From IMG/VR virus record IMGVR_UViG_3300037041_001930: a DNA stretch of 64,000 nt. One strand, given 5' to 3'. Position numbers and translations under genes: made by a program. The notes below the pieces were generated by a model. That model was not told where the DNA came from and did not search any database. It saw only the letters and a program-made list of their open reading frames with translations. Positions 7,179 to 34,539 of the stretch are shown in pieces (position 1 is the stretch's first letter; each line of letters begins with the position of its first letter). Origin of the DNA: a virus (taxonomy: Duplodnaviria; Caudoviricetes).

Positions 7179-8060
7179 TTACCTCTGCGCTAAAACGGGG
7201 GCAGTTGAACTCTTTGGTGCCGTGATCGCAGCTGTCGTGGCGCTCGCCGAGGGGTCTTCGACTGGTTGATTATTGACGGACACGATGCCTGACTTGGTAC
7301 CCTTGGCGACAGGTGGAAATGAGAGTGTCTTCTTAGGAGCACTCGCCGCAGACTTGGAGAGACCAAGTCGGGACAAGATTTCCTTGGCCATCTTCACCGT
7401 GTTGCCACCGATAGCGCTGGGGTCGAGTTGGCCACCCAGTGAACCCATGGGCCCACCGCCACCTTGGGGTTGGCCAGTGATAGCACCATTGGCCGTTGCG
7501 GCGGCGTCGGCATCCGACTTCTTGCCCTTGTTCTCTTGTTCTTTCTTCTTGCCTTCTTGTTCGAGCTCGAACTCGGCTTGAGCTTGTTCTTTGGTGCGGC
7601 CTTCACCAATGGAGGCCATGGCGCGTTCAACGATGCCCATGACGACATCGGCTTGTCCACGTGTCACGGAATCATCGGGACTACCCTTGACGTCAGGAGT
7701 TCCCGGAGCCGTGGGATCCGGGGCACCAGCGCTGGGGTCACCACCTGCGGCGGGGTCACCACCACCAATAGCACTCAGCATGTCGCCTTCGGGTGGCATG
7801 CCACCTGCAGCTGCGAGGTCACCGCCCGGTGGCATCCCACCCATGGCTGCAGGATCCCCGCCTGGAGGCATCCCACCCATGGCCATGGGATCACCGCCTG
7901 GAGGCGCCGGAGGAGCTCCTGCGGCGGCGGGGTCACCACCAGGAGGTGCACCACCAGCGGCGGCGGCGGGATTGCTGCCCGGAGGAGGCGCGGCCACAAA
8001 GGCCAGCTTCTGTGCGAACTCATTGAGGCTGCGTTGAAAGAGTCTTGCGGAGATGTCCAT
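7179..8060 (-). CDS. Gly/Pro/Ala-rich low-complexity protein, 293 aa (scaffold/internal-protein-like)
   Basis: GGDP(A/M)A(M/A)GGMPP repeats; QKLAF, VKMAK and SKSAAS motifs. Confidence 0.8.
   Translation of the reverse strand: MDISARLFQRSLNEFAQKLAFVAAPPPGSNPAAAAGGAPPGGDPAAAGAPPAPPGGDPMAMGGMPPGGDPAAMGGMPPGGDLAAAGGMPPEGDMLSAIGGGDPAAGGDPSAGAPDPTAPGTPDVKGSPDDSVTRGQADVVMGIVERAMASIGEGRTKEQAQAEFELEQEGKKKEQENKGKKSDADAAATANGAITGQPQGGGGPMGSLGGQLDPSAIGGNTVKMAKEILSRLGLSKSAASAPKKTLSFPPVAKGTKSGIVSVNNQPVEDPSASATTAAITAPKSSTAPVLAQR
7794..7901 (-). repeat. Three imperfect 36-bp tandem coding repeats (GGDxxAxGGMPP)
   Basis: Units at 7794-7829, 7830-7865 and 7866-7901, each (t/a)ggcat(g/c)ccacc...ccgcc(c/t)gg. 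Confidence 0.85.
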
Positions 8061-8079
8061 GGTGACCTCTAAAGGGTGT

Positions 8080-9096
8080 TCACTTTGTGGCGGGGCCAGT
8101 CGCGGTTACCGGAGGTGTCGATTTGATTGCACCGTTTGTGGCGCTGGCCGGAGGTGCTGGGGGTGTGATCGGGACTACCGCACCGTTTGTCGCACTGCCC
8201 GGTGACTTACGTTGTAGCTGTGCCAACTCCGCTTTCAGGTCATCATTCGTCGGCAATTTAACTGGTGGAGCCCCCACGGGATCAGGTTTTAATAGCATGT
8301 TCATTGGATTTATGTTATGCGCTGCGTCGAATATCTCCGGTCCAGCTTTATTCAAGTCTACATCGTTGCCAGCCTGTGGCTGCTTTTCCGGCGCTGTCGC
8401 TGGGGTTAGTGCATCCTGCGCTTTACCAAGCCCTTCCCGAATCTGGGGGAATGCCTTGTCGACATGGGGTCCCGCGAAGTAACCCGCGGTTCCGCCGGCG
8501 AGGGCAGCGATGAGAGCATTGCGCCACTTGTTCTTCTTACTCAGGAGGGCAGCACCCCCACCGGCGAGAGCGGCACCAGTAACGGCACCGATATTGGCGG
8601 GGTCCTTGTAGAACGGGGTTGTCGGGGCGGCGTCTTGGGCAGTCTTCTTGCCAACAACCTTAGCAGGGGCCACCTTTGGTGCAGGGGCTGCTTTTGGCAA
8701 CACGGCTGGCTTCGTCGCCGAGCGCGGGGCCATCTTGGCGCCAAGTGCTTCGAGAAAATCCGGTGAAGTCCCCACTGCGTTGCCATCGAAGTCGGCACGT
8801 GATGCCGCCGCTGTTTTGGCGACATCCTTGGCACCTGCTCCAGAGAGAGCACCGAGGCCCTGGCGGATCTGGGGGACCGCTTTGTCGACATGGGGACCCG
8901 CGACATAACCAGCGGCACCCCCAGCCAAAGCAGCGATGAGGGCGTTACGCAACTTGTTCTTCTTACTCAAGAGAGCTGCGCCACCACCGGCGAGAGTGGC
9001 ACCAGCGACGGCACCGATATTGGCGGGGTCCTCATAGAAGGGGACTTCAGCAGCTGTTTTAGTCAGGCACAGGGCAAGAAGACGTGTTGGGCGCAT
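8080..9096 (-). CDS. Gly-zipper membrane protein with an internally duplicated 64-aa hairpin module
   Basis: Two copies of PFYxDPANIGAVxGAxLAGGGAALLSKKNKxRNALIAALAGGxAGYxAGPHVDKAxPQIRxGLG, each preceded by KTA. Confidence 0.85.
   Translation of the reverse strand: MRPTRLLALCLTKTAAEVPFYEDPANIGAVAGATLAGGGAALLSKKNKLRNALIAALAGGAAGYVAGPHVDKAVPQIRQGLGALSGAGAKDVAKTAAASRADFDGNAVGTSPDFLEALGAKMAPRSATKPAVLPKAAPAPKVAPAKVVGKKTAQDAAPTTPFYKDPANIGAVTGAALAGGGAALLSKKNKWRNALIAALAGGTAGYFAGPHVDKAFPQIREGLGKAQDALTPATAPEKQPQAGNDVDLNKAGPEIFDAAHNINPMNMLLKPDPVGAPPVKLPTNDDLKAELAQLQRKSPGSATNGAVVPITPPAPPASATNGAIKSTPPVTATGPATK
8425..9042 (-). repeat. 192-bp direct repeat pair (8851-9042 and 8425-8616)
   Basis: Near-identical DNA and peptide in both copies. 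Confidence 0.9.
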
Positions 9097-9126
9097 GGTG
9101 GATTCCTACTATGGGTTATGGGATGA

Positions 9127-9165: not shown

Positions 9166-10110
9166 TCATGGGGCAGGCTGGGCTTCCCCTTGTCTGCGGA
9201 TGGTATCGAAAACTACTTGTTGGGCCTTACGCCTCGCCGCTGCCTTGATCTTAGCCAATGCGATTTCCTGGGCTTTAATGGCAGCCGCGGAGCCGACTAT
9301 GCGCTCTACAGCTTTCACTTTTACCTGGGTCTCCGGGGATTTCCAGGCAGCTTTGGCGTCATCAACGGCCTCGCCTGCGATTTCCTTGCGGTCGTTCCAG
9401 ACATCAACGAGAGTCTTAAATATGGCTGAGTTCTTGAAATCGTCTTTATTCGAGTGCATCAGTGCCGCTGCTAAACGCTTGCCAGTATCCACTCGTGTCG
9501 GAGCAAAGACATTGCCTGCTCCAGTCATCGCGGCACGTGGGATGGTGTCACCGACGACATTGGGCAGCGTGAGCGCCTTCCGGGGCTGTGTGTAATCCTT
9601 GAATACGGGTTGTTCCTTGAATGTCCGCAGGAGCTCATCGAGGTAGACACGCCCCATCGCACGATTCACGGGGTTGGTGATATTCAGGGATCGCAAAGCA
9701 AACATGGGGAGATGCTCGGCGACCCGTGCAGGGGATACCGGCAACCCGGTTTCCTTCACGATCATGGCGGCCGCGGAATCATTGGCCCTACTGGCAGCAT
9801 CCCCGGCTGCGTATAGTCCGGTTCCCGCTGCGGTGGCCCCGAGCCCTGTGGCCAGGAACTTACCAGGTCTGGTGCCCATGCCCATGACAAGTCTGGGGAT
9901 CGAGGAGGGGCCCACCTTAGTGGTCCCCGTCCATTGCTGATACGGAGTCATCTGCCCCTTGGGGGTCATCACGGGTGTGTGGAATTTCTGCACGGCATCA
10001 GTGGCCTTGTTGACCACTGGTTTCACCGCGCTGACCCCGGACTTCGCCGCGTTCCATATCCCGCTAAGACTGGCAGCTGCGGTCTTCGAGATTACACAGG
10101 GCAGCCGCAT
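9166..10110 (-). CDS. Hypothetical protein with Gly-rich hydrophobic segment and N-terminal KTAA leader, 314 aa
   Basis: MRLPCVISKTAAAS...; FLATGLGATAAGTGLYAAG; TAATG overlap with the RNAP stop. Confidence 0.8.
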   Translation of the reverse strand: MRLPCVISKTAAASLSGIWNAAKSGVSAVKPVVNKATDAVQKFHTPVMTPKGQMTPYQQWTGTTKVGPSSIPRLVMGMGTRPGKFLATGLGATAAGTGLYAAGDAASRANDSAAAMIVKETGLPVSPARVAEHLPMFALRSLNITNPVNRAMGRVYLDELLRTFKEQPVFKDYTQPRKALTLPNVVGDTIPRAAMTGAGNVFAPTRVDTGKRLAAALMHSNKDDFKNSAIFKTLVDVWNDRKEIAGEAVDDAKAAWKSPETQVKVKAVERIVGSAAAIKAQEIALAKIKAAARRKAQQVVFDTIRRQGEAQPAP

Positions 10111-13100
10111 TACTTGGACCCCTTACCAGAGTTCAGGATAACCACGGGGTCGGCGACACCAAGATCCCCCCTGAGGTAGGCCTGGTAGGCGTCCTCCTTG
10201 GAGGCAAAGGTGCGCGGAGTCTTGTTCTTCTTGATACTGGTGGCCAAGTAGAGCCCGGCGAGATAATCCTTGTCAGGCTTGAGATGGACGTCGAAATCAG
10301 CGGGGTGCCAGAGGTTCTTCGAGGGCATCATCTTCTCGATGACATCCCTGACGGCGTCGTGATGCGAGGGCACATGCAAATTGATCTTGTCGCCGTCGAA
10401 GTCCAGGTTCGCCCCGGGTTCGACGACCTGGGGGACCCCAATGTTGTTGCCTCTGGAGAGCACGGGCCAGGCCCCAACATAGTTGTAGCGTTGCAGTGCA
10501 GGGGCGCGATCCCAGTACACGGGGCGAGTCTTCATCTCGTTCTGGAGCTCACGGAGTGCAGCGGGCTTCTGTTCCCGTACAGCCATGACGGCCTCACGAG
10601 CACTCCACCCCGATCGGACGAGACGCCGGATCACATAGGGGCGATACACGGTCCACGCCATGTCCTTGGGGATCGAGACCTGGTCCATGTCGAGTTCGGG
10701 GTCCGGGGTGGCGACACCACGACCCACGGTATCCACGGCCTGGCCGAGCACCTTGCGCTGGAATCTCGCAAACTTGGGGGAGTCGCCGACACCAATGGCG
10801 TTCTGGAGAAGCCCCTTGACGCCCTGTTCGACATGCTTGGGGTTAATGGGGGCACCTAGACCCGCGACGGCTTTGGCAGCCGCGTACATGGCACCGTATT
10901 CCTCACCGGCATCCCCAAAGGTCTTCTGGGCCTCCGTGTAATTCTTCCCGGACTCCATGAGATCATGGTAGAGATAGTTGGCGTCATGGATGATATCCAT
11001 TTTACCAGCACGTATAACAGGCCTGAACTTCGGAGGTATAACAGGGATCTTGGAGATCATGAGGTCTCCGGGATCGACGCCTGCGGACTTCAGACCACTG
11101 AGATAGTTGAGGGCACGGACATGGACATCACGGGATGACTTCGATCCCGTCTTGACCCCCTGGATGTGCATGGCGATCTCGCGTTCAACATTGATCCCCT
11201 TGAGCGCAGTCTCAATGGCTTCAGGCCCAGTCTTGTCGCCAATCTTCTCCTGCCCACTGAGGACATCGAGGAACCTCTGCTTGGTGAGGCCAAGTATCCG
11301 GATGATGGGTTCCTCCATCACGGGATTCGGGATCTTCTGGGGCAACTCGATCTTGGTGAAGTGGCGGCCATCGGCACCACCTGTCTTCGCGAGATCGAAG
11401 AGGCCGCCATCCTTGGGCTGCATGGTCTCGAAGTCAAAAGTCTCCGATGTCGAGACTGAGTGCTGGGCCAGGGCATCGGTGTCCGCATCAGTCATCGGGG
11501 CGAGCTTGAGCCTGCCCTGGTTCTCACGCACGTTGACCCCGGCACCCTTGAGGAGGGTGAGGAAGTGACCGTGTGCACCCGACGCCTCGGGCATCACGGG
11601 ATCCATACCAAGTTTCACGGAGCGCCAGTAGTCATCGTTGCGTTGCCCACGAATCAGCTTGGCGTCTTTCAAAACATTTGTGGCACCGGCACTTAGGAGG
11701 CATTGCACGCCAAGCAGAGCAATTTTCTTACTACCTGAGCTGCCACCTTTGGCAGGCGAATCATCGGATGTGTAACCCCCGGTGTCCCGTGCGGCGAGGC
11801 CAGACTCCGCGGTGTGATGTAACCGCATGAGATGCTGGACCCCAGTGAAGATGCCCTTGATCTTCCGCCCCGTCCTGGGATCAGTGACATCATCGAGTTC
11901 ATCGACACCGTTGGCCTTGGCCTCGTTCAACGCGAACTCACCGAGGTCATCGTGGTCAAATGATTTTAGAACGTATGGTTTCCCGGTTTTCTGGGCCACC
12001 TTACCTAGCAGGGTCTCCGCGAGCACTGATGGGTTCGCTCGGGAGATGACCCCAAGGGCATTAACGATGACATCCAAGGGCTTGCCATCCGCACCCACTG
12101 GCATCTCACCATCGGGAACTATCTGGGAGACGACACCTTTGTTGCCATAGCGTGCTGAGAGCTTGGAGCCCTCAGTCATGGGCTCCACACTGGAGATCAT
12201 GACCTTGATGCCCTTGCGGGTTCTCACGACATCTGTGACCTGACCGGGGGTCGAGTGATCCCAGGTCTGCGAGGCATCAGAGAACGCTGATCTCGCCGAT
12301 GGGGTGACGACCCCACCAGGTCTCGGGGTCTTCTTGCGCACCGCGAGGAGCACGGGATCCCCGGGCTGCACAATGGTGCCCTCTTTGATCACACCGTCGT
12401 CATCGATACCCGAGATCTGCTCAGGTTTGTACTTACCCTGGAAGATCGAGGAGTAATCCGCTTTCTTCGTGGAATGAATGTTCTTATCGAGTTCAAGTTC
12501 ATGTTTGTAGGCGTGCTGTGAGGACAGCCGGCGAGCCGCGGATTCCGAGATGACAAAACCATCTTCATATGTTCTGCCGCTTCCAACCATATAACCAACA
12601 TTTAAGTTTGTACCCAGTGTTGCCTGGCCTTTGTCATCCGTGAAGTTCGATTTCGCGAGGACATCCCCGGGTTTGAAACTATCACCTTCGCGAACCAATG
12701 GTGTGTTGTGCAGACTTGTTTTACGCGCCAGGGGGTAGTTGTTATACAACTCATGTCGTTCCTTCTTGCCCCCAGCGTAGACGACATCGATGTGGTCTGG
12801 TGTCACGGCGACAACACGCCCGGGTGCCTTGGCCTTCACGGCGCCCATCCAGGTACCCATGGAGTCATGAATCGAGGTGCCGTCGGGATTCGCGGCTTGA
12901 ACTAAAGGGGCCTCAGGCGCTTGTAGCGGGAGGGCCTGTGACGTCATTCTTGCCCCCATCAGGGTTCTCTGTGACTTCGCACCTTGGGTCATCGGGACCA
13001 TATTGGTGAGCCTGGAGAACATCGAGGACCCATGGGGGAGTTCGTAGTCGACCTCTGCGGCGGGCTTCCACTTAATGTCTTCGCCATCGAGAACGCGTAC

Positions 13101-14657
13101 CATCGGTGGCAATGGCTTCCCGAGACCGTGCATGCCCACGGACGCCGAGAGCTCGGGATCCCTGGAGATGTCATCCATGGTGACCACGTGGTCCACATAC
13201 TTTCCATCATCACCAGGCAGGGGTACCTTGTAGAACTCGCGCTTCGCCGCTTTCGCGAACTCACCAGGAAACGCAATGGGCTTCTGGGAGGCCTGAAGTG
13301 CAGACAGCGTGACTTCCTCACCCTTGCGTGATCGCACCTTGAAATAAAGGCGACCATCGGAACCCTTGAGGGCGCCATCGGTGAGACGCATGTCGACACC
13401 GATGTTCTGGCCTTCAGGTGCCCGGATGGGATCAATGATACCGAAGTAGCTGGGCTGGACACCGCGTGCTGAACGCGGTACGGCTTGGTTGGACGAAATC
13501 CCGCCCTCGCCGAGGCGCGTTATGGTCTGACGGGCATCCATGATCTCCAGGGGATTCGTGTCTTCCACTGAGCTCATGAGTCCACTTTGAAACACGCCAT
13601 CCACTGCTGGGTTCAGGAGTCCTGGGGATACGTTTCCAAGATTGCCCTCACGGGTCGCCCGCCACAGCAATTTTCGCATGGCGTCACTGCCACGACTCAA
13701 GCGTTCCTCGAAGAAGTCCTCGGGGCCATGGAAACTCTGAAAGGCCTGAGAATCCCGGACATCGTCGGGGACCTCATCACGACTCCGCTTCAACATCTTC
13801 GTAGTCGCATTCAACATGGTGTCGAGATTGAAATTCTTGTACTTGGCTCCCAGCGTGGTCTCAGTGGTTTCCTCGTCGAGCTCGGCTCTTCCAAGGATCT
13901 CATGGAGTTTGTCTTTGAGGAGTTCGGTTGCCGTGTCTTGGTCACCTCGACGCCCCATCTTGGCCACGATCTTACGAGCCTCCTGGGCGTCGTGCCCACC
14001 AGGTGGGCGCCAGTTCGCCTTGAATAGATCATCCCCCCAGGCTTCCCTGATGGTTGCATCGGGGACCCCCATGGATCTCAGCAAGGGGTACAGCCGGGTT
14101 CCACTCTGGCCCACGTTCAACTTGAACACGCCTGTGGAGGGCTCGAGCTGGAGATCGAAGCCCCGACCACTGCCTGGCTTCGGATTCACCTGAGCCTTGA
14201 CGTCCCCGTTCTGCTGGCGGAGCACGTAGACCCCGGGGCGCAGGCGCTGCTGGTTCTTGGCGGCCCAAATGGTGCCCCCGCGAACAAAGATGCCACGTGG
14301 GGTCAAATGGGGGACATGCGCAAGGGTGGTCTCGGTTTCATCGACGACTGCACCGGATGCCTTGTCGACCAAGCGAACCCTGCCCTTGATGGCGCGCTGC
14401 ATGCTCTGACGAGACATCAGCGCTTTCTTCTCATCACTGAGGCTGGGGTTGTAGTCCTGGGCGTAATCGGAGTCTGCGATCTCAACCCTGTACTTCTCAT
14501 TCTCGACAGGCTTCAGGGCACGGACCCCGCGCAGTGCATTCGAGTAGATGGCGTCGCGTTGTCCGCTGACGTCATCAAAACTTCTATGGGTCACCGGGGC
14601 TACGGGACTCGGGCTACCCACGGGGGTATCAAAGGCGCCTTTGAGATCGCCTATCAT
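10110..14657 (-). CDS. rpoB: DNA-directed RNA polymerase beta::beta'-N fusion subunit, 1515 aa
   Basis: beta motifs RLRPGVY, NPLE..TRLGEGG, PEGQNIGV, RMTSQALPL, GSKLSARYGNKGVVS, DVIVNALGVISRAN; then beta' motifs DGGLFD, IPVIPPKFRP, RKVLGQAVDTVGRGV, RAPALQR and catalytic NLDFDGD (10389-10409). Confidence 0.95.
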   Translation of the reverse strand: MIGDLKGAFDTPVGSPSPVAPVTHRSFDDVSGQRDAIYSNALRGVRALKPVENEKYRVEIADSDYAQDYNPSLSDEKKALMSRQSMQRAIKGRVRLVDKASGAVVDETETTLAHVPHLTPRGIFVRGGTIWAAKNQQRLRPGVYVLRQQNGDVKAQVNPKPGSGRGFDLQLEPSTGVFKLNVGQSGTRLYPLLRSMGVPDATIREAWGDDLFKANWRPPGGHDAQEARKIVAKMGRRGDQDTATELLKDKLHEILGRAELDEETTETTLGAKYKNFNLDTMLNATTKMLKRSRDEVPDDVRDSQAFQSFHGPEDFFEERLSRGSDAMRKLLWRATREGNLGNVSPGLLNPAVDGVFQSGLMSSVEDTNPLEIMDARQTITRLGEGGISSNQAVPRSARGVQPSYFGIIDPIRAPEGQNIGVDMRLTDGALKGSDGRLYFKVRSRKGEEVTLSALQASQKPIAFPGEFAKAAKREFYKVPLPGDDGKYVDHVVTMDDISRDPELSASVGMHGLGKPLPPMVRVLDGEDIKWKPAAEVDYELPHGSSMFSRLTNMVPMTQGAKSQRTLMGARMTSQALPLQAPEAPLVQAANPDGTSIHDSMGTWMGAVKAKAPGRVVAVTPDHIDVVYAGGKKERHELYNNYPLARKTSLHNTPLVREGDSFKPGDVLAKSNFTDDKGQATLGTNLNVGYMVGSGRTYEDGFVISESAARRLSSQHAYKHELELDKNIHSTKKADYSSIFQGKYKPEQISGIDDDGVIKEGTIVQPGDPVLLAVRKKTPRPGGVVTPSARSAFSDASQTWDHSTPGQVTDVVRTRKGIKVMISSVEPMTEGSKLSARYGNKGVVSQIVPDGEMPVGADGKPLDVIVNALGVISRANPSVLAETLLGKVAQKTGKPYVLKSFDHDDLGEFALNEAKANGVDELDDVTDPRTGRKIKGIFTGVQHLMRLHHTAESGLAARDTGGYTSDDSPAKGGSSGSKKIALLGVQCLLSAGATNVLKDAKLIRGQRNDDYWRSVKLGMDPVMPEASGAHGHFLTLLKGAGVNVRENQGRLKLAPMTDADTDALAQHSVSTSETFDFETMQPKDGGLFDLAKTGGADGRHFTKIELPQKIPNPVMEEPIIRILGLTKQRFLDVLSGQEKIGDKTGPEAIETALKGINVEREIAMHIQGVKTGSKSSRDVHVRALNYLSGLKSAGVDPGDLMISKIPVIPPKFRPVIRAGKMDIIHDANYLYHDLMESGKNYTEAQKTFGDAGEEYGAMYAAAKAVAGLGAPINPKHVEQGVKGLLQNAIGVGDSPKFARFQRKVLGQAVDTVGRGVATPDPELDMDQVSIPKDMAWTVYRPYVIRRLVRSGWSAREAVMAVREQKPAALRELQNEMKTRPVYWDRAPALQRYNYVGAWPVLSRGNNIGVPQVVEPGANLDFDGDKINLHVPSHHDAVRDVIEKMMPSKNLWHPADFDVHLKPDKDYLAGLYLATSIKKNKTPRTFASKEDAYQAYLRGDLGVADPVVILNSGKGSK

Positions 14658-14659: not shown

Positions 14660-15427
14660 TTACCCCGTGATCTCAGTAGCCGGATCACGTTTCTTGAGAG
14701 TTGGAACCATAACAGCCATCGGGGTACTCGCCCCCACGTTGTTGAGGTAGTCGCGCATCGCCTTGGCTTTGGCGCGATACTTATTCTCGTCTTTGTTCTT
14801 GTTATACGCGTTCATGGCCACGATGGTTCCCGCGATACCCAGAGGGATCCCAATGGGGGCCAGGACTTCACCGACACCGGCGGCACCACGCATCCCGAGG
14901 TCCGCGATGAAGCCTGCGGTCTTCGGTAACTCAGCGGTATGACTACCGACTTCCGAGGTACCCAGGTTTTCCACATAGACGTCTTCGGCAACCTTCATGG
15001 CGCGGGAGAGCCCGGCATCCGCGGGGTCGGGTTCACCATTGATCAAGGCCTGGACACGTTTTCTGCTGCGCTCCAGTGAGCTCATCGCTTTGGCTTTTCG
15101 CTTCTTGTCCAGGAAACTATCGAGGGCAGACCAGCCACCAACTGCGGACAGGGTGCCAATGCTGCCTTGCACCGCTGTATCCAGAATGTTGTCGGCTGCT
15201 GTTTTAACTTTGATGCCCTGCTTCTTGAGCTCCTTGGCCTCTTCCTCACTGACATCCACGGGGACCTCAACCGCTGAGCTCTCCCCCGGGGGCAACTTGA
15301 CAGGAGCACGGGTGCCCGACTTATTGGCGATGTCGTAACCCCATCGGGCCAGACGAGCACCAACACCGAGTCCGAGACCGGCGATAGCTGGGAACGCGAC
15401 ATCACTGTAAGTAAGATTGAGTGCCAT
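14660..15427 (-). CDS. Membrane protein with three Gly-rich hydrophobic segments separated by KTA motifs, 255 aa
   Basis: FPAIAGLGLGVGA / KTAA...GSIGTLSAVGGWSAL / KTAG...LAPIGIPLGIAGTIVAM. Confidence 0.8.
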   Translation of the reverse strand: MALNLTYSDVAFPAIAGLGLGVGARLARWGYDIANKSGTRAPVKLPPGESSAVEVPVDVSEEEAKELKKQGIKVKTAADNILDTAVQGSIGTLSAVGGWSALDSFLDKKRKAKAMSSLERSRKRVQALINGEPDPADAGLSRAMKVAEDVYVENLGTSEVGSHTAELPKTAGFIADLGMRGAAGVGEVLAPIGIPLGIAGTIVAMNAYNKNKDENKYRAKAKAMRDYLNNVGASTPMAVMVPTLKKRDPATEITG

Positions 15428-15436: not shown

Positions 15437-15859
15437 CTATTGTTCCGGGGACGCCTGTAGAGGGGCGAATCGGCGCGGGGGTCGAGGTGATCCAGGAAGT
15501 CCGTAATCGAGTGCAGACCATCGCATGAATGCTTTATACTTTCCGGTCTTCTCGGAGAAATCCACCCGATTCTCAGATAACACTGCACGGGCCTCAGCGA
15601 TGTCCTGCCAAACCCTACGATAGGCTTCCAGGTGGTCTGGGTTATCGAGATCGAATACGGCGACCTCAGGAGTATAGAACTCCTGGACTTGTTTGGAGTC
15701 GGGATCCTTGGGATGGATCAGTGGGACTTCCCCAGTGATCGGGACTTCACGTGGTGCCGTGTGGCGTACCACCCGCATGCCCTGAGGCAGGGGTACCCGG
15801 GTGCCCTGGAGGACCTGGTTGGCGTTAATGGTTCCTGGAGGCAGGGGGTTAGAGCTCAT
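15437..15859 (-). CDS. Hypothetical protein, 140 aa
   Basis: Operon-packed ORF with 3-9 nt gaps. Confidence 0.75.
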   Translation of the reverse strand: MSSNPLPPGTINANQVLQGTRVPLPQGMRVVRHTAPREVPITGEVPLIHPKDPDSKQVQEFYTPEVAVFDLDNPDHLEAYRRVWQDIAEARAVLSENRVDFSEKTGKYKAFMRWSALDYGLPGSPRPPRRFAPLQASPEQ

Positions 15860-25350: not shown

Positions 25351-26214
25351 TCACTGAGCGTCAAGCCCTGCTATGTAGCCGTCGAGGTCGCTGCCATTGA
25401 TCTCGGTGAGTAAAACACGCTCCCAGAGCACACGGACTCCATTGAGATTCCGCTTGGCTTCTGGGGTGTCACCCTCGAGGTCGGCATAGGGAACGAAGGC
25501 ATCAAGGGTGCCCGGATCAGTCTCCTGTGTCGAGACTATCCAGTTGTGGTTCCCTGCCGTATTGGTGTCGAAAGGATGCAACAGTGTGAAGTCCGCGAAG
25601 AGGAGGCTGCGAGGTGCCACCCCAGCGGCGACGAGATCCTGGAGCATGGTCTTCATGGGGTCAATGTTGGGGCGACCAATGATATTGATCCAGATGTTCC
25701 GAGTAATCGCGGCACAGGCCTTGAAGAAGGCGACCTGATCCCCGGTGATCAGAGACTTGCCATCATAGGCGTCGTGGAGGATAAAATCGTAGGGGTAATT
25801 GTCACGCGGGCTCCCCGCGATGAGGGGGATCATGGCGAGGGCATCAGCGGTGAATACCCGAAGACGGCCGGACTCGATGGCAGCATTGACCTCAGGGAAT
25901 CCTTGCTTGCACAAATGGACTGCCACGGGGTCAATTTCGATGACATCGATGCGGACCCCAGGGAAGTTGGTGAGCACGGCGACGGCACCGGCACCACTGC
26001 CGAGACCAATCATGAGACCTCTCCCCCTTGGGTTCATCGCTGCGGCGGCAAGCCACCCCAGGGTGTACGGGGATGCCGAGACGACACCGGGGCCGCCGTG
26101 CTTAGACGGGGGATCCAGGAACGCGGCACCCTGGACCTGCCCATTGATTCGGAGCTGGCGTGCGCCATTGACGTCGATGACATCGACGACGCCGAACATA
26201 CCCGGGGCCATCAT
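25351..26214 (-). CDS. Spermidine-synthase-like class I SAM-dependent transferase
   Basis: LMIGLGSGAG (motif I), IDVIEIDPVAV, FTADAL, YDFILHDAYDG. Confidence 0.8.
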   Translation of the reverse strand: MMAPGMFGVVDVIDVNGARQLRINGQVQGAAFLDPPSKHGGPGVVSASPYTLGWLAAAAMNPRGRGLMIGLGSGAGAVAVLTNFPGVRIDVIEIDPVAVHLCKQGFPEVNAAIESGRLRVFTADALAMIPLIAGSPRDNYPYDFILHDAYDGKSLITGDQVAFFKACAAITRNIWINIIGRPNIDPMKTMLQDLVAAGVAPRSLLFADFTLLHPFDTNTAGNHNWIVSTQETDPGTLDAFVPYADLEGDTPEAKRNLNGVRVLWERVLLTEINGSDLDGYIAGLDAQ

Positions 26215-27158
26215 GCCGACTGCAACTCAGGATGGGTATGGTCAGCAGGGGCGTACTTCCGACGTAGTTTAGTGGGTCTGACATCCCCACTGTAGGGGTC
26301 ATCAGATGACCGACGTTTCTTTGTAGACTCCACAGGACGATTAGACATTTTGTATAAGAGATACAATAGTCCAGCAGTGGCTACACCAGCAGTACCCAGG
26401 ACAAGAGGTGATGTCAAAGTTTTAACAGCATCGCCCATGTTTTCGACACCACGTGATGTCCGCTCACCAGTGGCGGCTACATCTTTAGAAAGTTGTTCAA
26501 CATTCTTCGCCGTATTTGCCGTACTTGTCAAGCCTTCAACAACTGGTTTATTTGATTCCTCGATGAGTTTCTTGGAGGCTCCAGCTGCCCCCTCGAAAGC
26601 ATTGGCTGCACTACTAATTGACTTCGCAGATCTAGCGGCTTCCAACCCAAGACCAATTCCAGCTTTAACACCGATATTCTTCATGATTGCGTCAGTTCCA
26701 GCCCTTGATTTCAAGGGGTCAAGAATGGCAAGCGCACGCTGGGGATTCGCAGATGAAATCTCGAGCTGTCCCCCCTTCGTAGTGGGGTGATCAATCCGCA
26801 TCGTAAATGCCCCTGGATTTTTGGGGTCTGGTGACCAGATATTAGATTTAGATAGATCGGGTTGTCCTTTACCTGCTTTTAAGGCATCTTGGAGTTCGCT
26901 GTGTCCAGCGTGTAAGTGGCCCCCACGCATTGCGTGTCGCTGCCCCTTCGTAGTCGCCAGTGCCCCTATCGCAGAGAAAGTTGCGGCTTGCAGTGGATCG
27001 ATGGGTTGTCCACGAATCTTATCAATGGCAATGGGAATGGTGCCACCAGCTACACCTGTGGCCACTGGCCAAATGATGTCACGGAGTGCCGCCGCCGCCT
27101 CCTTTTGCATGGCCACTTTACGAGTGAGATAAAACAACATGATCTGTGCTGGGCTCAT
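26211..27158 (-). CDS. Membrane-anchored hypothetical protein, 315 aa, AT-richer than neighbours
   Basis: Leader ...LTRKVAMQKEAAAA; hydrophobic IIWPVATGVAGG and LVLGTAGVATAGLLYLLY; ATGA overlaps at both ends. Confidence 0.75.
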   Translation of the reverse strand: MSPAQIMLFYLTRKVAMQKEAAAALRDIIWPVATGVAGGTIPIAIDKIRGQPIDPLQAATFSAIGALATTKGQRHAMRGGHLHAGHSELQDALKAGKGQPDLSKSNIWSPDPKNPGAFTMRIDHPTTKGGQLEISSANPQRALAILDPLKSRAGTDAIMKNIGVKAGIGLGLEAARSAKSISSAANAFEGAAGASKKLIEESNKPVVEGLTSTANTAKNVEQLSKDVAATGERTSRGVENMGDAVKTLTSPLVLGTAGVATAGLLYLLYKMSNRPVESTKKRRSSDDPYSGDVRPTKLRRKYAPADHTHPELQSA

Positions 27159-29245
27159 ATCTGGGGCTCCTGTGCAGACGTTTGTAGCGGTGCTTCGGCT
27201 ACTGCCTCTGGGTTCTGGATCTCGGGGGTCTCCGGCTTCACCGCCTTCGACCTCCGAATCGCACGGTGGATCACCCTCGCCCTGGCACGATCAAGATTAC
27301 GGAATGGCTTATTGATGGCTAGACCCATGGACCCGTAGACCTGCTTGAGGACCTGGTCATGGGGGATCCACTCACCGGGGAAATCCGCGGGTGCCTCGCC
27401 TTCACCGAGATGAAAGGCGTAGTCGTAGCCGTGGTACCCAGGCTCCGGCGCCCCTTCATCAGGGATCACGCGGACGTTGGACGAGTAGGGGGCTGGGGCC
27501 CCCTTACCCTCAGTCGGGAAATGAAATCGACGGTTGCTGTCACGTCGAACCAATACTTTACCTTCGGGATCCAAATAGACGTACTCAGTTTTAGGAAGCA
27601 GCGCGGCAGCATCTGCCTGCTTCTTCAGTGGCATCTCGGTGTGCGTGGCCAGGACGTCCTCACCGACCCCGCCTGTGAAAAACTCTTTCTCATCGAAGTA
27701 GGTGACCCCAGCGGTCTCTGCGGCGTCATGATCGTCATCGGTGTTGCCAACCATGCAGATCACGGGATCCAAGGAGAACGCTTCCTCGGCGTATTCGAGC
27801 ATCGCCGGCGAGGGTTTCCTACCCGCATCGTCTTCATCGGTGCAGAACACGATGTCGTCGATCTCAGGCAGGAGCTCAAGGGTCTCGTCATTGAAGTCGA
27901 GGACATCAGCTAGGGTGCTCGTCCCCATGACACTGCGATTCGTGACCCCGATGATGCGGACCCCCGCTGCCTTAAACTTCTTCAGGAGTTCCTTGACCCC
28001 AGGCTGTATCTTCTGAGTAGCATCGATGCCGGCGTCGTCATCCCATTCGGCGACCACGGTGCCATCGAGATCAACGAGGAGCCCAGGCGCCGTCGATGGT
28101 GTCTTGTCCTGGAACTTCTGGGTGCGCATGGATCCCGAGATCTCAGCGGCATGCTTCTCGGCGAGAGTATTGGTGTGCTTGGCCATCGTGAAATCCCCGT
28201 TGGTCGGGGAGTCCCCGCTGCGGAGGACAAGGAGAACCCGGCCATCCGGGAATCTCCGGACTTCATCGAAGTAGTGGCCATGGGCGGCCTCGAGGTCCTG
28301 GAGGGCCTTCACGAAGACCTTGGGGTCCTTGGGCGCATAGATACGGCGAAGACTATTGCGGTACAGTGCCCAGCCGTGGTGCTGACGCGGAACACTGGCC
28401 AGCTTCTTGCCCTTGAGTTCGGGATCCTTCTTCGCCATGCCCCTGGCGGCCTCGACGAGTTCGAGGCGGACCTCGTTGGCCCTCTTGGCCCAGTCGTTCT
28501 TGGCTACGAGTTCTTTGAGACGGGAGATCAGCGTGGCGAAGGGGATCACATCGAAGTCCTCCCGATCCGGGTGTGTGGTCCCCAGCTTGCCGTCATGGAC
28601 TCCAGTGAAGAAGTAGGTTCGTTCACCGTCGAATGCGGAGTCGTCCCAGAAGTCGTTGACCCCCTGGGGCCAAATCGACTCCACGATCTCACGGGTCTCC
28701 GGGGAGATGATCTTGAGATCGGCTTCCTCAATGGCCTCCCGAATCGCGGCGAGCAATGGGGGTTCGCCATCGTCGATGCCACCCCCGGGGAACAGGATGT
28801 AGTCTCCCTTGTCGATGCCGACGACTCCATCCTTGTCGAACGCGACGATCTCGGATCTCGGCCTCAGGAGCTGGCTCGGGGAGCCCTCGTGTTTATCCGG
28901 TGTGGGTTCATTCTCGGCGGCACGCTTGCCCAGCCCTCTGGCGAAGCTGTGATCCCTGCGTTGTCTTGCCAAGGCGGCCTCATCGGGCGCGACATCCTTG
29001 GGCTTCGCCGGCATCATCTTTGTCGCATTGGTCCAGATCTTCGCTGCTGGAGACGGCAGGCTGTGGTCCTCGGATGTCCCCCTGCAGTCACCGCCACTGA
29101 AGAGTTCAAGAAAGGTTTTGCCCTCGACCATGTGGGCATTCGTGGCTTTAACAGGATTCCCACCCGTTGGCGTCGCCACAGGTGTGTTGGTTACGGGGCG
29201 ATCACTGCCCCGGCCTGGAGATGGAATCTTGGTCTCCGCACGCAT
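27155..29245 (-). CDS. Multidomain protein: Nudix hydrolase + PCD-like domain + HAD phosphatase + degenerate Nudix-like C-terminal domain
   Basis: Nudix box GGGIDDGEPPLLAAIREAIEEADL; HAD motifs LVDLDGTV, GVTN, RKPSPAM, MVGNTDDD; the middle domain GWALYRNSLRRIY..HGHY..GDFTMAK resembles pterin carbinolamine dehydratase. Confidence 0.85.
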   Translation of the reverse strand: MRAETKIPSPGRGSDRPVTNTPVATPTGGNPVKATNAHMVEGKTFLELFSGGDCRGTSEDHSLPSPAAKIWTNATKMMPAKPKDVAPDEAALARQRRDHSFARGLGKRAAENEPTPDKHEGSPSQLLRPRSEIVAFDKDGVVGIDKGDYILFPGGGIDDGEPPLLAAIREAIEEADLKIISPETREIVESIWPQGVNDFWDDSAFDGERTYFFTGVHDGKLGTTHPDREDFDVIPFATLISRLKELVAKNDWAKRANEVRLELVEAARGMAKKDPELKGKKLASVPRQHHGWALYRNSLRRIYAPKDPKVFVKALQDLEAAHGHYFDEVRRFPDGRVLLVLRSGDSPTNGDFTMAKHTNTLAEKHAAEISGSMRTQKFQDKTPSTAPGLLVDLDGTVVAEWDDDAGIDATQKIQPGVKELLKKFKAAGVRIIGVTNRSVMGTSTLADVLDFNDETLELLPEIDDIVFCTDEDDAGRKPSPAMLEYAEEAFSLDPVICMVGNTDDDHDAAETAGVTYFDEKEFFTGGVGEDVLATHTEMPLKKQADAAALLPKTEYVYLDPEGKVLVRRDSNRRFHFPTEGKGAPAPYSSNVRVIPDEGAPEPGYHGYDYAFHLGEGEAPADFPGEWIPHDQVLKQVYGSMGLAINKPFRNLDRARARVIHRAIRRSKAVKPETPEIQNPEAVAEAPLQTSAQEPQI

Positions 29246-29988
29246 CAGATACCCCCGAGATACCGGATCGCATAGGCGCCGAGACGCCGGAGTTCCACTG
29301 CTGTCTTGGGGAGATTGGGGCCCATGCCATAGCTGGCGCCCGTGGACTGTGTTGGCGGGCTCCCGGGCTGCCCACTCGCCGTGGAGGTCATGGGTTGGGC
29401 TTGGGCGACACCACCGGAACCGATACCAGGAGTGGACCCCTGGGCTCCACTGACCTGACCACCTCCAGCGGGGATGATGGTCTTTGAGCGATGCTGGGGG
29501 TCCACGGCGAGATCGCCGGGACCCTGGTTCTTCTGGATCCCCACGCCACCCGGTGCGGGCATCCTGCTCACATTGGGGGTCGAGGATGCCGTATTGGAGA
29601 CTGACATCGATGTGTTCGGCAGCCTGCCACCAGCCATCGCCTTCTTTTCCAACTTCTCGGATTCCGTATAATACTTTGGATTCTTGGCGAGGTGGTCGAT
29701 GGAGATTTCTTTACGTGCCTCGAGGTTGGGGGTGTGCTCACCCTCTTCCTTGATCCCCTTGATGAGTTCCTTGACACTGAGCTTGCCATGCCTTGGTGTC
29801 TGCCCCCCGAGGATGGCAGCTGCGACCTTGCCAACACCTAACCCCAGGAATGCCGCCTCTTTCTTCCAGTTCTCCGGTTTACGCCCCTGCTTGTTGGCAG
29901 TAGCGTAGAACACACGCTCAGCCTTTTCCTTACTGTAGGTGTCTCGCATGGAATTAAGAACTTTCTTGGCATCCCCGACGATAGGCAT
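29245..29988 (-). CDS. Modular protein: small basic N-domain + DUF5661-like domain + low-complexity tail
   Basis: ELIKGIKEEGEHT...EISIDHLAKNPKYYT resembles DUF5661; modules are separated by KEAA/KVAA, KKAMA and KTAV. Confidence 0.75.
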   Translation of the reverse strand: MPIVGDAKKVLNSMRDTYSKEKAERVFYATANKQGRKPENWKKEAAFLGLGVGKVAAAILGGQTPRHGKLSVKELIKGIKEEGEHTPNLEARKEISIDHLAKNPKYYTESEKLEKKAMAGGRLPNTSMSVSNTASSTPNVSRMPAPGGVGIQKNQGPGDLAVDPQHRSKTIIPAGGGQVSGAQGSTPGIGSGGVAQAQPMTSTASGQPGSPPTQSTGASYGMGPNLPKTAVELRRLGAYAIRYLGGI

Positions 29989-31405: not shown

Positions 31406-34072
31406 TTAGAATATGGTCCAATCAGTACCAATCGCAGTGAGCGAGAATGCCTCACCTGGGGAGATGGTGAAATTAGCAGTTGACCCCTCAATTGTATCAG
31501 CCCCTGCACGCGACACTGTGATAGCCACAGTGCCGGAATTACGAATCCAGACATCCCGCCCATTCCCTGCCGCGGGGAGCTCGAAGACCTGCCCAGCAAT
31601 AGACCCCGTGAATCTGACGCGTGAAGCCGTGATCACCGAAGTGGTCGTGACCGACTGAGTGCTGTTCTTCAGAAAACCGCCAATGCCGACATCTCCATTT
31701 ACTGTCACGCTGCCACCAACACCAACTCCTCCGGCCACCTGTAACGCGCCAGTCGCCGGGCTAATTGAATCAGTGGTGTATTTGATTTGCAGGGCCCCGG
31801 TCCCCAGGTTACCGCCGGTAAACTGAGCGACTTCACTTGTGTTAATACCTATAATTATAGGCTTGTTCGTGTTGTATATCCCAAATAACAATCTATCTGG
31901 CGCAAAGCTACCCGACGACAAAATAATTGATGACGACGACCTGGTGGAATAGCCGAACAACGACGAGGGTAGTGGGCCTGGCTGTGGAGACGCCCCAACC
32001 GAAGTCAAAATCAGATCAAACTTTTCGACAGACGAACCACCGCGAACAAGTATAGTCCCCCAGTAGTCATTCCCACCACCATCAATTAAGATGTGCTTGC
32101 TCTTCGAGTAGCCTGTGAGGCTTATACTTGTGTACGTCCATATAGGTCCCTGTACGTTAAGCGCCTCGGATATCCCCACACCACCTGCGACTTTTAGCGC
32201 CCCAGTGGTAGACGATGTCGACGATGTGGTGTTTGCAATCGCGAGTCCACCACTCGCAAGCGTGGAGTTATATGTCAGTAGCGTACTGCCCGCCTGGACG
32301 TTAGCCCCTCCCCAGTAAGCTACCTGCCCGGTTACCCCATTACCAGATACGACAGATGTTGGTAGATCTGCCAGAACTAGAGATCGAAATGTAGGGATAC
32401 CGTTGCCACTGCTTGGAGCGGCGTAGACAGTGTTGGCGGCCTGGGGACCTGTCAGCGCGACATATGCGGCGCTCGACAAATGGTAAGCCTCCCCTGATAC
32501 CCCACCCTGTATACCAGCGGTGTCATTGTGATTGACGATCCCTGAAGAAGAAAAAGCGACTGCGAACGCAGAATCAATCTGTGTCGCCGTCTCCGATGAC
32601 TTCATGACAATAATGCGCCCAACAAGTATCCCCTGCTTGGAAATAACAGCAGGTAAACTCGCAGGTGGCTGCGAGGCCTGTGCCTGCGCTAGCGTGTACG
32701 ACGCGGTCCCGAGAACCACGAATAGTCCACTGTCTGAAACAGAGCGGTACACCCAAGAAACGCTGTAATGGTTATTCCCTATCGTCTGTAGTCCGGTACC
32801 GTTGTCGTACTCACTATTACTGTACTGTGTGCGCGATACCGCAGTCCACACCCCAGGTGAGGCATGATAGTACAGATGATACGACGTCGTCCCGGAGCTA
32901 ACTACACCAAGCGGAATCTCGCTCCCATCATACCACACCGTACCCGCAGAGACCTCGATCTGTCTTGACCCCGGGTCAGATAGCGATAACCCATCCTGCC
33001 ATCCAAAGCGCTCAGTGTGAATGAGTCGGTGGGCGATTTTATTCGATAGCCCATAACCATAGGCGCCAACGCAGAAGACATGACCCTCATTGATAAGCCC
33101 GGTGTTCTCCCAGAATAGGTTGCATACAGCGATGCGATTAGCATGGTTGATCAGAGTGTTGTCGGTAATGACCTCGTAAACTGGTGTGCCCGCGTTATAG
33201 AAGACAGTGAGGTAGTAATACGTGTTCGCTGAGAGCTGATAATTAGTCAGCTCAGGTATCACGAAGGACGTTGTATCCCCACTGAAGTCAGCGTTTGGAT
33301 TCAAATTAGCACTGATGCTCGACACATTGAGTAGGCCCGTGACGCCGATTGTAACTACAGGGACCGAGGTTCCCCCGCTACTGAGAAGGGAGCTTCGACC
33401 AATAATCTTGGTAATCGGCAATAGCGGGATGTCCGTGAAAACCAGAGAACGGAAGGCGGGGGCTGCTGGGTCTGCCACGGGATCCGCGGGGCCAGCGAAC
33501 ACGAGGCCTGGAATCTGAGGTGCCCACGCAGCAGTGAGCTCGCCCACCCCAGTAACAGGAGATCCTGTTACGGAAAACTCAGGGGGGAGTGCGAGACCAA
33601 CAGAGGTCACCGTCCCCACCCCAATCATACCGGACCATCCGCTACCGTTAAAGTGGAGATACGCCCCCGTGGCCTTGTTAAATGATATAGTCCCGAGGAC
33701 TGCAGGTACGAAGAACCATGCGCCATCCCGCCAGCTCGCATAGGCGTGGGCATGCCCGTCCCAGGCCCCGGTCGGGAGTGGTCCCACGATCCAGCGCTGC
33801 CCCGGCAAAGGGGCTACCGGCGGGGTGTTCGTGATGGTCTGAACAGGGTCACCCCAGAACCCATCAGCGATTCTGCGGTCAACGGTTCGCCGTGTGGTCA
33901 AATGGGCATCTGCGGTGGCGTCTACGCCGGCCACAGCGGCCACGAATGGATGGAGACCATCCGTGGTGACGACATCGGGCTCCAGGGTATCCGTGTCGAT
34001 AGGATTCGTAGGGGAAACCCTGCGAAGCTGGCGACCATCGAAGAACACTGGCTTCTGAGGAGTGCTTGGCAT
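31406..34072 (-). CDS. Tail fibre protein with N-terminal DUF2793-like domain, 888 aa
   Basis: PPVAPLPGQRWIVGPLPTGAWDGH...WRDGAWFFVP (DUF2793-like); GTVTSV and PxFRSLVxxDxP repeats; TGALxVAGGVG fibre repeats. Confidence 0.8.
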   Translation of the reverse strand: MPSTPQKPVFFDGRQLRRVSPTNPIDTDTLEPDVVTTDGLHPFVAAVAGVDATADAHLTTRRTVDRRIADGFWGDPVQTITNTPPVAPLPGQRWIVGPLPTGAWDGHAHAYASWRDGAWFFVPAVLGTISFNKATGAYLHFNGSGWSGMIGVGTVTSVGLALPPEFSVTGSPVTGVGELTAAWAPQIPGLVFAGPADPVADPAAPAFRSLVFTDIPLLPITKIIGRSSLLSSGGTSVPVVTIGVTGLLNVSSISANLNPNADFSGDTTSFVIPELTNYQLSANTYYYLTVFYNAGTPVYEVITDNTLINHANRIAVCNLFWENTGLINEGHVFCVGAYGYGLSNKIAHRLIHTERFGWQDGLSLSDPGSRQIEVSAGTVWYDGSEIPLGVVSSGTTSYHLYYHASPGVWTAVSRTQYSNSEYDNGTGLQTIGNNHYSVSWVYRSVSDSGLFVVLGTASYTLAQAQASQPPASLPAVISKQGILVGRIIVMKSSETATQIDSAFAVAFSSSGIVNHNDTAGIQGGVSGEAYHLSSAAYVALTGPQAANTVYAAPSSGNGIPTFRSLVLADLPTSVVSGNGVTGQVAYWGGANVQAGSTLLTYNSTLASGGLAIANTTSSTSSTTGALKVAGGVGISEALNVQGPIWTYTSISLTGYSKSKHILIDGGGNDYWGTILVRGGSSVEKFDLILTSVGASPQPGPLPSSLFGYSTRSSSSIILSSGSFAPDRLLFGIYNTNKPIIIGINTSEVAQFTGGNLGTGALQIKYTTDSISPATGALQVAGGVGVGGSVTVNGDVGIGGFLKNSTQSVTTTSVITASRVRFTGSIAGQVFELPAAGNGRDVWIRNSGTVAITVSRAGADTIEGSTANFTISPGEAFSLTAIGTDWTIF

Positions 34073-34539
34073 TATTCATCCTCGCCATCACGGCTCAAAA
34101 ACTTGTTGAGAAGATATGCGGAACCCAGGCCGAGGCCGGCGCCAGCAGCGGTGCCCCCTGCGGCGATACCAGTGGTCGCCATGGGACCCCCGTCGCCGTA
34201 ACGCGCATGCCGTCTGGCGACCTCACCACCGAGGCCAGCGCCGAGTTCGGTACCCGCGCCACCCAGGGCGCCAGTGATGGCCCCCTTCATGGTATCCCGG
34301 AGTTTGTCGCCCTTCTTCGCCGTGAGGTACTTGTAGGCGCCGAGACCGAGTCCACCGAGGAGAGCCCCCTTCCAGGGGACACTCATGCCCAGGGATTCCG
34401 CGAGACCAACCCCAGGTGTGGGATTCGGAGTCGGGAGATCGTAAACTGGAACAGGGGCACGCTCGGGCTGCGCGAGCAATGGAGTCGCCTCAGCGGCGAC
34501 TTTAACAAGACTGGAAGCCAAGAAGACGTCGAGTGTCAT
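34072..34539 (-). CDS. Gly-zipper membrane protein with KVAA leader, 155 aa
   Basis: MTLDVFLASSLVKVAAE; GALLGGLGLGAY-KK-GAITGALGGAGTELGAGLGG. Confidence 0.8.
   Translation of the reverse strand: MTLDVFLASSLVKVAAEATPLLAQPERAPVPVYDLPTPNPTPGVGLAESLGMSVPWKGALLGGLGLGAYKYLTAKKGDKLRDTMKGAITGALGGAGTELGAGLGGEVARRHARYGDGGPMATTGIAAGGTAAGAGLGLGSAYLLNKFLSRDGEDE

Follow-up and report, generated by a model that had tools for sequence, protein, structure and literature searches.

Why are genes for glycine- and alanine-rich hydrophobic proteins placed among the RNA polymerase and portal genes of a tailed phage? The question is raised by positions 7179-34539 of a stretch of 64,000 nucleotides (hereafter the window) from IMG/VR record IMGVR_UViG_3300037041_001930, a Caudoviricetes record of 171.6 kb and 79% completeness, whose closest complete relative (G001) has 216 kb. 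In an initial annotation of this DNA, eight genes, called here by their first positions (8080, 9166, 14660, 15863, 16588, 26211, 34072 and, further away, 56174), were taken for a family of membrane proteins that might be matured and ejected with the RNA polymerase (RNAP) to build a channel or an early membrane compartment. The explanation that we prefer, and to which we give an even chance, is that these candidates are processed, head-packaged ejection proteins of an N4-like kind, which would be cleaved, stored in the capsid, expelled with a virion RNAP and inserted into the host membrane.

Hydrophobic segments in the head and polymerase block

Are such segments really concentrated in this block? 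A segment was counted where a 19-residue window had a Kyte-Doolittle mean of at least 1.0, no more than one charged residue, a Gly+Ala (G+A) content of at least 37% and at least 4 Gly. All eight genes are intact open reading frames on the minus strand, and each encodes at least one charge-free Gly/Ala-rich hydrophobic segment, as had been noticed. The 19 genes of 7179-34539 hold 16 segments, while the other 143 genes on the minus strand hold 7 (Fisher p=4e-6); the segment density is about ten times that of the remaining genome. When the block was shuffled with its composition preserved, 1.9 ± 1.3 segments arose (maximum 7). Two of the 16 are false positives, one being the Rossmann G-loop of 25351-26214 and the other lying in the fibre 31406-34072. 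Several segments are closed by a belt of Tyr plus Lys/Arg, which is typical of membrane anchors.

Do the candidates form one family? All-vs-all BLASTP among them found no significant similarity, and the profile comparison that the initial annotation called for, an hhalign run of the 8080, 14660 and 15863 family profiles against each other, gave about 1% probability. Judged by their sequences, the candidates are several unrelated families with a common feature and not paralogues. Pfam and PHROGs have no match for 9 of the 10 candidates. The name "Gly-zipper" holds for a part of them: the strict pattern (G/A/S)xxxGxxxG lies within hydrophobic segments of 6 of 9 proteins (8080, 15863, 34072, 14660, 16588 and 29245, a gene outside the earlier list), while it is not found within those of 9166, 26211 and 56174, and Pfam recognises the 8080 family only. 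By an adjacent-helix criterion, zippers occur in 8080 (both hairpins), 34072 and 15863, and in one helix each of 14660, 16588 and 29245.

What is the genomic context of these segments? Nearly all genes of the 171.6-kb genome run on the minus strand. Reading from 24161 to about 1600, one meets the portal gene, a gene of 1901 residues, a cassette of three genes, an RNAP fusion, small genes, beta'C and a gene of 750 residues. The portal protein (22290-24161, (-), 623 residues) is a homologue of portal gp204 of Salmonella phage Arash (expectation value, E, 8e-56) with a weak Pfam match to SPP1_portal, and its gene is the upstream boundary of the cassette. The RNAP is encoded as a beta+beta'N fusion of 1515 residues (10110-14657, (-); Pfam RNA_pol_Rpb2_6 2e-40, plus Rpb1_1/Rpb1_2) and a beta'C part with a LAGLIDADG intein (3909-6959, (-); Pfam RNA_pol_Rpb1_5 and LAGLIDADG_3). 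Just beyond the window start lie a putative head maturation protease (14894-16438 of L033, a locus of the same genome; phrog_18299 "head maturation protease", E 2e-8) and a candidate capsid protein of 312 residues, assigned by its size, its position and an N-terminus resembling that of Arash. The genes from 24161 to about 1600 sit between the portal and these protease and capsid genes, co-oriented and tightly spaced, and the whole block is a head-morphogenesis module. Orientation and spacing are no more than consistent with the single operon that had been proposed; promoter- and terminator-like sites occur at chance level. Hydrophobic-helix genes do flank the RNAP fusion, but the two RNAP genes which they had been said to flank are halves of one polymerase, since they encode a beta+beta'N fusion and beta'C, and there is one PF00562 match per genome in both the 171.6-kb record and the complete 216-kb relative, i.e. 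a single beta-type gene and one RNAP set.

A conserved cassette upstream of the polymerase

Which of the candidates is tied to the RNAP? Gene 14660-15427 (-), directly upstream of the fusion, encodes 255 residues with three Gly/Ala-rich hydrophobic segments (residues 6-24, 84-102 and 181-209). K75-T-A-A stands 9 residues ahead of the second segment and K169-T-A-G 12 residues ahead of the third, which agrees with the earlier remark that each KTA of this gene comes before a new hydrophobic segment. The family is large: a profile of twelve homologues recovered 1207 cluster representatives with E<=1e-3, of which 545 reach <=1e-10. Comparison of gene order across related genomes, a check that had been suggested, showed a 14660-type gene immediately upstream of the RNAP fusion wherever the locus was long enough to tell, two distant representatives included, and usually preceded by 15863- and 15437-type genes. 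Over 84 representatives the hydropathy has three peaks, Gly/Ala-rich and without charges, which fall at reference residues 14-25, 86-98 and 191-207, and the stretches between them are 40-55% charged. Among 56 divergent homologues, K-x-A occurs in the variable linker ahead of segment 2 in 52, compared with 15.2 ± 3.3 (maximum 26) for shuffled linkers, and is aligned just ahead of segment 3 in 50. With these counts, K-x-A ahead of a new hydrophobic segment is a conserved trait of a large family. What is more, segments and K-x-A sites keep their positions across homologues that share less than 30% identity. A PDB profile search with the 56-member alignment found nothing below E 0.5, and a Pfam scan of the members gave scattered single matches only, with no family match.

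The other two genes of the cassette lie immediately upstream. The first gene, 15863-16591 (-), encodes 242 residues with one glycine-zipper helix (residues 54-80). The middle gene, 15437-15859 (-), encodes a soluble protein of 140 residues, homologues of which are encoded at the corresponding place in L004, L006, L008, L012, L020, L010 and L049 (L numbers denote loci, most of them of relatives).

A candidate processing signature

If the candidates are not related by descent, what do they have in common? Leaders of 9-19 residues ending in phi-x-K-x-A-[AGS] are found genome-wide only in 8080, 9166, 26211 and 34072 plus one fibre gene. In the head block, K-x-A-[AGS] was observed 52 times, against 22.7 ± 4.9 in shuffles. 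The motif is also at K25 of the candidate capsid protein and at K27 of the capsid proteins of Arash and Vibrio phage D69, and scaffold-like proteins of these two phages contain it six to ten times. In a relative whose RNAP is 48% identical, the genes at the corresponding place are not homologous to these and carry the same type of leader, often followed by a Gly-rich helix and then KKKR. From these sequence patterns, the common trait of the candidates would be a processing signature, with the motif as the presumed cleavage site. The hydrophobic segments had been said to come typically after a K-x-A site, which is too strong, as 5 of the 14 true segments are within 40 residues of a K-x-A-[AGS].

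Could the leaders be Sec or lipoprotein signals instead? This reading was rejected: their hydrophobic (h-) regions are short (5-7 residues), the motif is also internal, and the capsid protein carries it. Outside the head block K-x-A-[AGS] is under-represented, with 23 observed against 39.7 ± 6.2 in shuffles, and non-head proteins may avoid it.

The 8080 gene shows leader and modules together. It encodes 338 residues (8080-9096, (-)), with a leader (residues 1-16) that ends in L-T-K-T-A-A, two tandem glycine-zipper hairpin modules and a Pro/Ala-rich tail. The helices are at residues 24-45/49-71 and 166-187/194-212, and K151-T-A-Q stands ahead of the second module. Each hairpin consists of a helix, a basic turn and a helix, with GxxxG repeats. 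Throughout the family an invariant K-T-A stands ahead of every hairpin module, and the number of modules differs between close relatives. In Pfam, the nine members match PF13488 (9/9, best 4.4e-8), PF13441 (8/9, 1.8e-6) and PF05433 "Glycine zipper 2TM" (7/9, 2.5e-4); the copy in the window scores E 0.016 and 15.5 bits, below the cut-off of 25 bits. The other seven genes have no match to the glycine-zipper clan at E<=1. One homologue is annotated by the Joint Genome Institute (JGI) as "outer membrane lipoprotein SlyB". Lipoproteins of SlyB/Pcp type (PF13488 Gly-zipper_Omp, PF13441 Gly-zipper_YMGG, PF05433) resemble 8080 in their hairpins of GxxxG helices. In contrast to them, 8080 has no lipobox or Sec signal, its modules are tandem and separated by K-T-A, and its gene belongs to a phage head module. 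The lone Cys of its leader is not conserved and is preceded by Leu, and homologues lack Cys, so there is no lipobox.

Turnover among the remaining candidates

Several of the other candidates differ widely between relatives. The 1901-residue protein of 16588-22293 (-) is hypervariable and shares 35% identity with its L002 counterpart, against 92% for the RNAPs. It has K-L-A-A at residues 37-40 followed by a hydrophobic helix at 56-76, a second helix at 555-575 and a Gly-rich helical hairpin at 1721-1753 (window 17035-17133). Only the hairpin region is kept in the clade with 48% RNAP identity (45% identity over 38 residues), and in L004 four leader-bearing genes take the place of the 16588-type gene. 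The protein of 26211-27158 (-), 315 residues long, consists of an invariant 16-residue leader, a hypervariable middle, a transmembrane (TM)-like helix at residues 247-272, a Tyr/Lys belt and a conserved tail. Among phages with 92-94% identical RNAPs its body is 25-37% identical with large indels while the leader is invariant; between 26211 and its homologues in L036 and L039, leader, C-terminal anchor and the tail Y-A-P-A-D-H-(T/S)-H-P-E are conserved. The 314-residue accessory protein of 9166-10110 (-), the start of which overlaps the RNAP stop, has a 12-residue leader (I-S-K-T-A-A) and one Gly/Ala-rich helix at residues 85-103. Neither L002-L004 nor the complete relative G001 has it, and L002 and L003 have a different leader-bearing gene ahead of beta'C. 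The 34072 family, confined to close relatives (5 clusters), is represented here by 155 residues (34072-34539, (-)) with the leader L-V-K-V-A-A and glycine-zipper segments at 50-68 and 120-144. Finally, 56174-57148 (-) encodes 324 residues with a variable middle, a C-terminal TM-like helix at 287-313 and an acidic tail. Such turnover of genes in this block resembles that of injected cargo in other phages.

Within the 16588 protein, the module at about residues 1702-1792 resembles residues 533-628 of the same protein (E 3e-5 via the L008 homologue), which points to an internal duplication.

Virion proteins of relatives

Is anything of this kind present in virions? Arash, whose RNAP is 29% identical to that of the window (29-30% for Arash and D69), is a myovirus by electron microscopy. 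In the 171.6-kb genome and the complete 216-kb relative the tail sheath family PF04984 has no match, so that the genes do not confirm this tail type for them. By mass spectrometry of its virions, the fused RNAP gp206 is the most abundant protein by spectral count (3516 spectra) and beta'C has 1210 spectra, and two glycine-zipper proteins were detected as well, gp213 with 143 and gp224 with 222 spectra (PMC10585845). Both, like the 59-residue glycine-zipper protein 0262 of D69, are encoded in the module of head and RNAP genes. As with 8080, the genes of gp213 and of D69 0262 lie between the two RNAP genes, the latter directly after the RNAP gene. On sequence comparison, Arash gp213 and gp224 are analogues of the candidates rather than detectable homologues.

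These RNAP-bearing phages also encode their own sigma factors, namely Arash gp10 and gp196 and D69 0246; gp10 was found in Arash virions with 467 spectra (PMC10585845).

Comparison with known ejection systems

What mechanism do these features suggest? The candidates would be made late, together with portal, RNAP and capsid proteins, and their short N-terminal leaders would bring them into the prohead. There the head maturation protease would trim them or cut them into modules at phi-x-K-x-A-(A/S/G). On ejection they would leave through the tail together with the DNA and the virion RNAP. The Gly/Ala-rich helices, soluble or self-packed in the capsid, would enter the host envelope after ejection, where they might help to open or line a passage for the DNA and for a polymerase of very large size, or else hold the entering complex at the inner membrane. 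Channel building by the candidates is plausible by analogy. The head module, the conserved leaders, the capsid-type K-x-A, the nearby protease and the Arash virion analogues are together good, though indirect, support for the earlier proposal that the proteins are matured and ejected with the RNAP. A more specific version, which we consider rather unlikely, is that cutting at K-x-A during maturation yields one-helix peptides of about 70-90 residues, and that these form an inner-membrane conduit or docking platform for the megadalton polymerase. Such peptides may be likened to the lytic or fusion peptides of animal viruses, which are armed by maturation cleavage. The result would be an ejectosome in contractile-tailed phages, in which we know of none.

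The closest functional parallel is phage N4. Its virion RNAP gp50 is expelled together with gp51 and gp52, products of adjacent genes stored in the capsid, which have hydrophobic helices, integrate into bilayers and form pores that pass the polymerase (PMC13434306). As in N4, the gene of a likely virion RNAP here adjoins genes of hydrophobic-helix proteins. N4 differs in being a podovirus with a single-subunit RNAP of 3500 residues and two ejection proteins, whereas the present phage has an RNAP of multisubunit type, at least 8 hydrophobic-helix proteins, leaders and K-x-A sites that imply processing, and relatives that, where their morphology is known, are myoviruses. What is known, then, is expulsion of helper proteins with a virion RNAP in the N4 manner; by analogy, the present locus probably does the like with unrelated proteins, a multisubunit RNAP and a K-x-A processing signature.

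P22 gp7/gp20/gp16 and T7 gp14/gp15/gp16 are likewise head-internal, encoded in structural operons and endowed with marginal Gly/Ala-rich segments. The segments of T7 gp14/gp16 and P22 gp7/gp16 have 19-residue Kyte-Doolittle means of 1.0-1.44 and G+A of 30-52%, the same as or weaker than those of the candidates, of which the maximum means are 1.0-1.97; the end of P22 gp7 is a 41-residue segment with 13 Gly. T7 gp16 is purified as a soluble monomer despite its predicted TM regions, and yet it inserts into liposomes (PMC8954989). Since the T7 and P22 segments score the same or weaker, marginal hydrophobicity is the norm for proteins that are soluble in the capsid and insert later. P22 gp7 also loses an N-terminal leader of 20 residues, but by a host protease according to its database record. 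Both systems differ further in having three defined components instead of a variable set, and in not accompanying a phage RNAP. No candidate has a Pfam or PHROG match to the ejection-protein families of P22, T7 or N4, and the 14660 family has no PDB profile match.

For the leaders, the internal proteins of T4 (IPI-III and Alt) are a better parallel: they have a capsid-targeting leader that ends in the motif cut by the head protease, and they are hypervariable and injected with the DNA. The proteases of T4 and phiKZ cut after Glu (L/I-x-E and S/A/G-x-E, respectively). Inner-body proteins of phiKZ are proteolysed, head-internal, soluble and injected (10.1101/2024.03.24.586471). The likeness to T4 and phiKZ would lie in a leader motif shared with capsid and scaffold proteins, a hypervariable repertoire and injection with DNA; the differences are Glu sites in place of K-x-A, and soluble cargo without glycine-rich hydrophobic helices. 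Since no homology to proteins of N4, T4 or phiKZ was found, the likeness is one of working and not of membership.

Alternative explanations

Several points weigh against ejection and membrane insertion. Where the morphology of relatives is known, they are myoviruses; the tail tube of such phages spans most of the envelope by itself, which makes it less clear why an ejectosome would be needed. A search for a characterised protease with K-x-A specificity found none. The virion detections concern Arash proteins and none of the present phage's; as 116 of 272 proteins were counted as structural in that study (PMC10585845), they are weak evidence. Moreover, gp213 compared with the 8080 family gave 5% in hhalign, i.e. 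no detectable homology, and no match turned up when the Arash genome was searched with profiles of the 14660 and 15863 families. The hydrophobicity of the candidate segments is marginal on simple scales: summed Hessa-scale values are +1.7 to +7 kcal/mol, against -5.6 to +1.5 for classical membrane proteins of the same genome. In the 14660 family the peaks span only 12-17 residues, and the segment of 15863, though conserved, has a mid-helix Arg or Lys in some homologues. The "membrane" helices of the initial annotation are therefore marginal, even if they equal or exceed the segments of T7 and P22 ejection proteins. Structure predictions of the candidates were uninformative. AlphaFold2 models from alignments of 8 sequences each had a mean predicted local distance difference test (pLDDT) of 41 for 14660 and 45 for 15863, so that only helix content is legible in them. 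A four-copy complex of 8080 residues 14-95 was predicted with a score of 0.02 and a partner pLDDT of about 33, which says nothing on self-association either way. The ESM Atlas entries most like 8080 and 15863 score at most 0.81 and, being viral hypotheticals and Gly-zipper_YMGG clusters, are leads only.

How else could the pattern be explained? The main rival, somewhat unlikely in our judgement, keeps packaging and processing but lets the helices pack inside the particle as a core for RNAP and DNA, a scaffold, or a plug of portal or tail, so that they never enter a membrane. In the solved structure of the N4 virion, the tail plug gp53 has two stretches that form a "hydrophobic knot" corking the tail tube (PMC13434306), and the proteolysed, soluble, head-internal proteins of phiKZ (10.1101/2024.03.24.586471) would be another precedent. 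The marginal hydrophobicity, the short peaks and the charged mid-helix residues of some 15863 homologues fit such packing as well. It is less easily reconciled with the aromatic and basic belts at the C-termini of 26211 and 56174, the KKKR ends of the L004 proteins and the match of the 8080 family to glycine-zipper 2TM models, and most candidates have no globular domain able to bury two to four fully apolar helices. Could the proteins instead remain unpackaged in the host membrane, as anchored morphogenesis or late factors for tethering of portal or prohead, superinfection exclusion or control of lysis? Co-expression with the portal, judged from position, and the TM-like C-terminal anchors of 26211 and 56174 would suit this role, and T4 initiates its prohead on the inner membrane. 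Nevertheless we think it quite unlikely: the leaders are too short and too weakly hydrophobic for Sec and homologues have no lipobox, the K-x-A motif is common to capsid and scaffold-like proteins, the 14660 type is linked to the RNAP gene and not to the portal, and analogous Arash proteins were detected in virions.

The early compartment of the initial annotation would make the candidates virion-delivered builders of a Chimalliviridae-like vesicle around the injected genome and RNAP. The RNAP is likely to be a virion protein here, many membrane-active-looking proteins are encoded with it, and injected head proteins of phiKZ colocalise with recruited lipid (10.1101/2024.03.24.586471). However, neither the genome nor the complete relative has a chimallin or tubulin homologue or a second RNAP set, which makes a vesicle very unlikely. 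With phiKZ gp54 as query nothing was found at E<=1 in the 171.6-kb genome or the complete 216-kb relative, in a single-sequence search that a very distant homologue could escape, and for PhuZ tubulin there was no PF00091 match in either; the earlier remark that neither gene is recognisable was right. Nor do the candidates show similarity to a known vesicle-forming protein: PF12699, the family of phiKZ internal head proteins, has no Pfam match among them, and the sequences do not favour a vesicle over a channel or an anchor. In all, the early compartment is unsupported. There remains compositional coincidence, which a genome of 56-61% guanine plus cytosine (GC), low-complexity linkers and a Gly+Ala content of 23-34% in several candidate proteins might produce. 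It is largely refuted by the shuffles (1.9 segments against 16, and 22.7 motifs against 52) and by the conservation of segment and site positions at less than 30% identity, and we find it highly improbable.

Why does the distinction between ejection and these alternatives matter? To our knowledge, passage of a very large polymerase through tail and inner membrane is understood only for the podovirus N4. In this locus there is a set of candidate helper proteins, open to test, for a virion polymerase of an unrelated, multisubunit type, and K-x-A is a candidate maturation code. The clade with fused beta-beta' RNAP is large and mostly uncultured, and its cultured members include Arash and the Vibrio phages D69, D148 and D181. 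The 14660 type is a practical handle on it, being a large unannotated family linked to the RNAP, with conserved hydrophobic modules delimited by K-x-A. Even if the candidates are internal packing proteins, the cargo-loading signal of a phage group would still have been defined.

Neighbouring genes and minor observations

Gene 29245-29988 (-) encodes 247 residues with a Gly-rich segment (45-65) that overlaps K-V-A-A. Its residues 75-116 form a weak DUF5661-like stretch (Pfam E 4.5e-4, below the cut-off). The same kind of stretch is fused to a 14660-type domain in L009 (4309-5487), with a related entry in L051, and DUF5661 is also recorded on one representative from the 14660 search (P0164). A fusion of 29245-like and 14660-like parts was checked in L009, L010, L013 and L027 and did not hold up beyond L009, which alone among them has the DUF5661-like stretch; the rest is drift of the iterated hidden Markov model.

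Between 8080 and beta'C lie 7179-8060, a Pro/Gly/Ala repeat protein without hydrophobic helix, and the small gene 6959-7177. Downstream of beta'C, 1627-3879 encodes a 750-residue homologue of Arash gp218. It has six phi-x-K-x-A-[AGS] sites with conserved positions and no hydrophobic helix, Arash gp218 has 1149 virion spectra, and the product may be a processed head protein. The putative protease has relatives in Arash and in D69, D148 and D181, and more distant kin (28% identity) in many large Mycobacterium myophages, e.g. Catera, Alice and ScottMcG.

Inteins or homing-endonuclease insertions in the RNAP genes vary in site among relatives (window 3909-6959; L003 9929-15856; L049, L052, L007, L009, L010). 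The insertion is in beta'C in the window and in the beta-beta'N fusion of several relatives, where the fusion has 1817-2146 residues compared with 1515.

Gene 1389-1715 of the window is listed with a GTG start, which gives an overlap of 88 nucleotides with the gene upstream, and an ATG at residue 42 gives a protein of 67 residues beginning M-S-L-S-K-T-A-E. This internal ATG is probably the true start, with a minimal K-x-A leader. The same gene shares with 15863-16591 (residues 114-153) and 27155-29245 (residues 243-279) a stretch of about 35 residues, L-K-K-L-A-A ... N-A-V-x-L-G-x-x-E-A-A-R-G-M, with 45% identity and pairwise BLAST E of 1e-5 to 2e-4, in proteins that are otherwise unrelated. 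In 15863 the stretch is an insertion confined to the subclade of the window.

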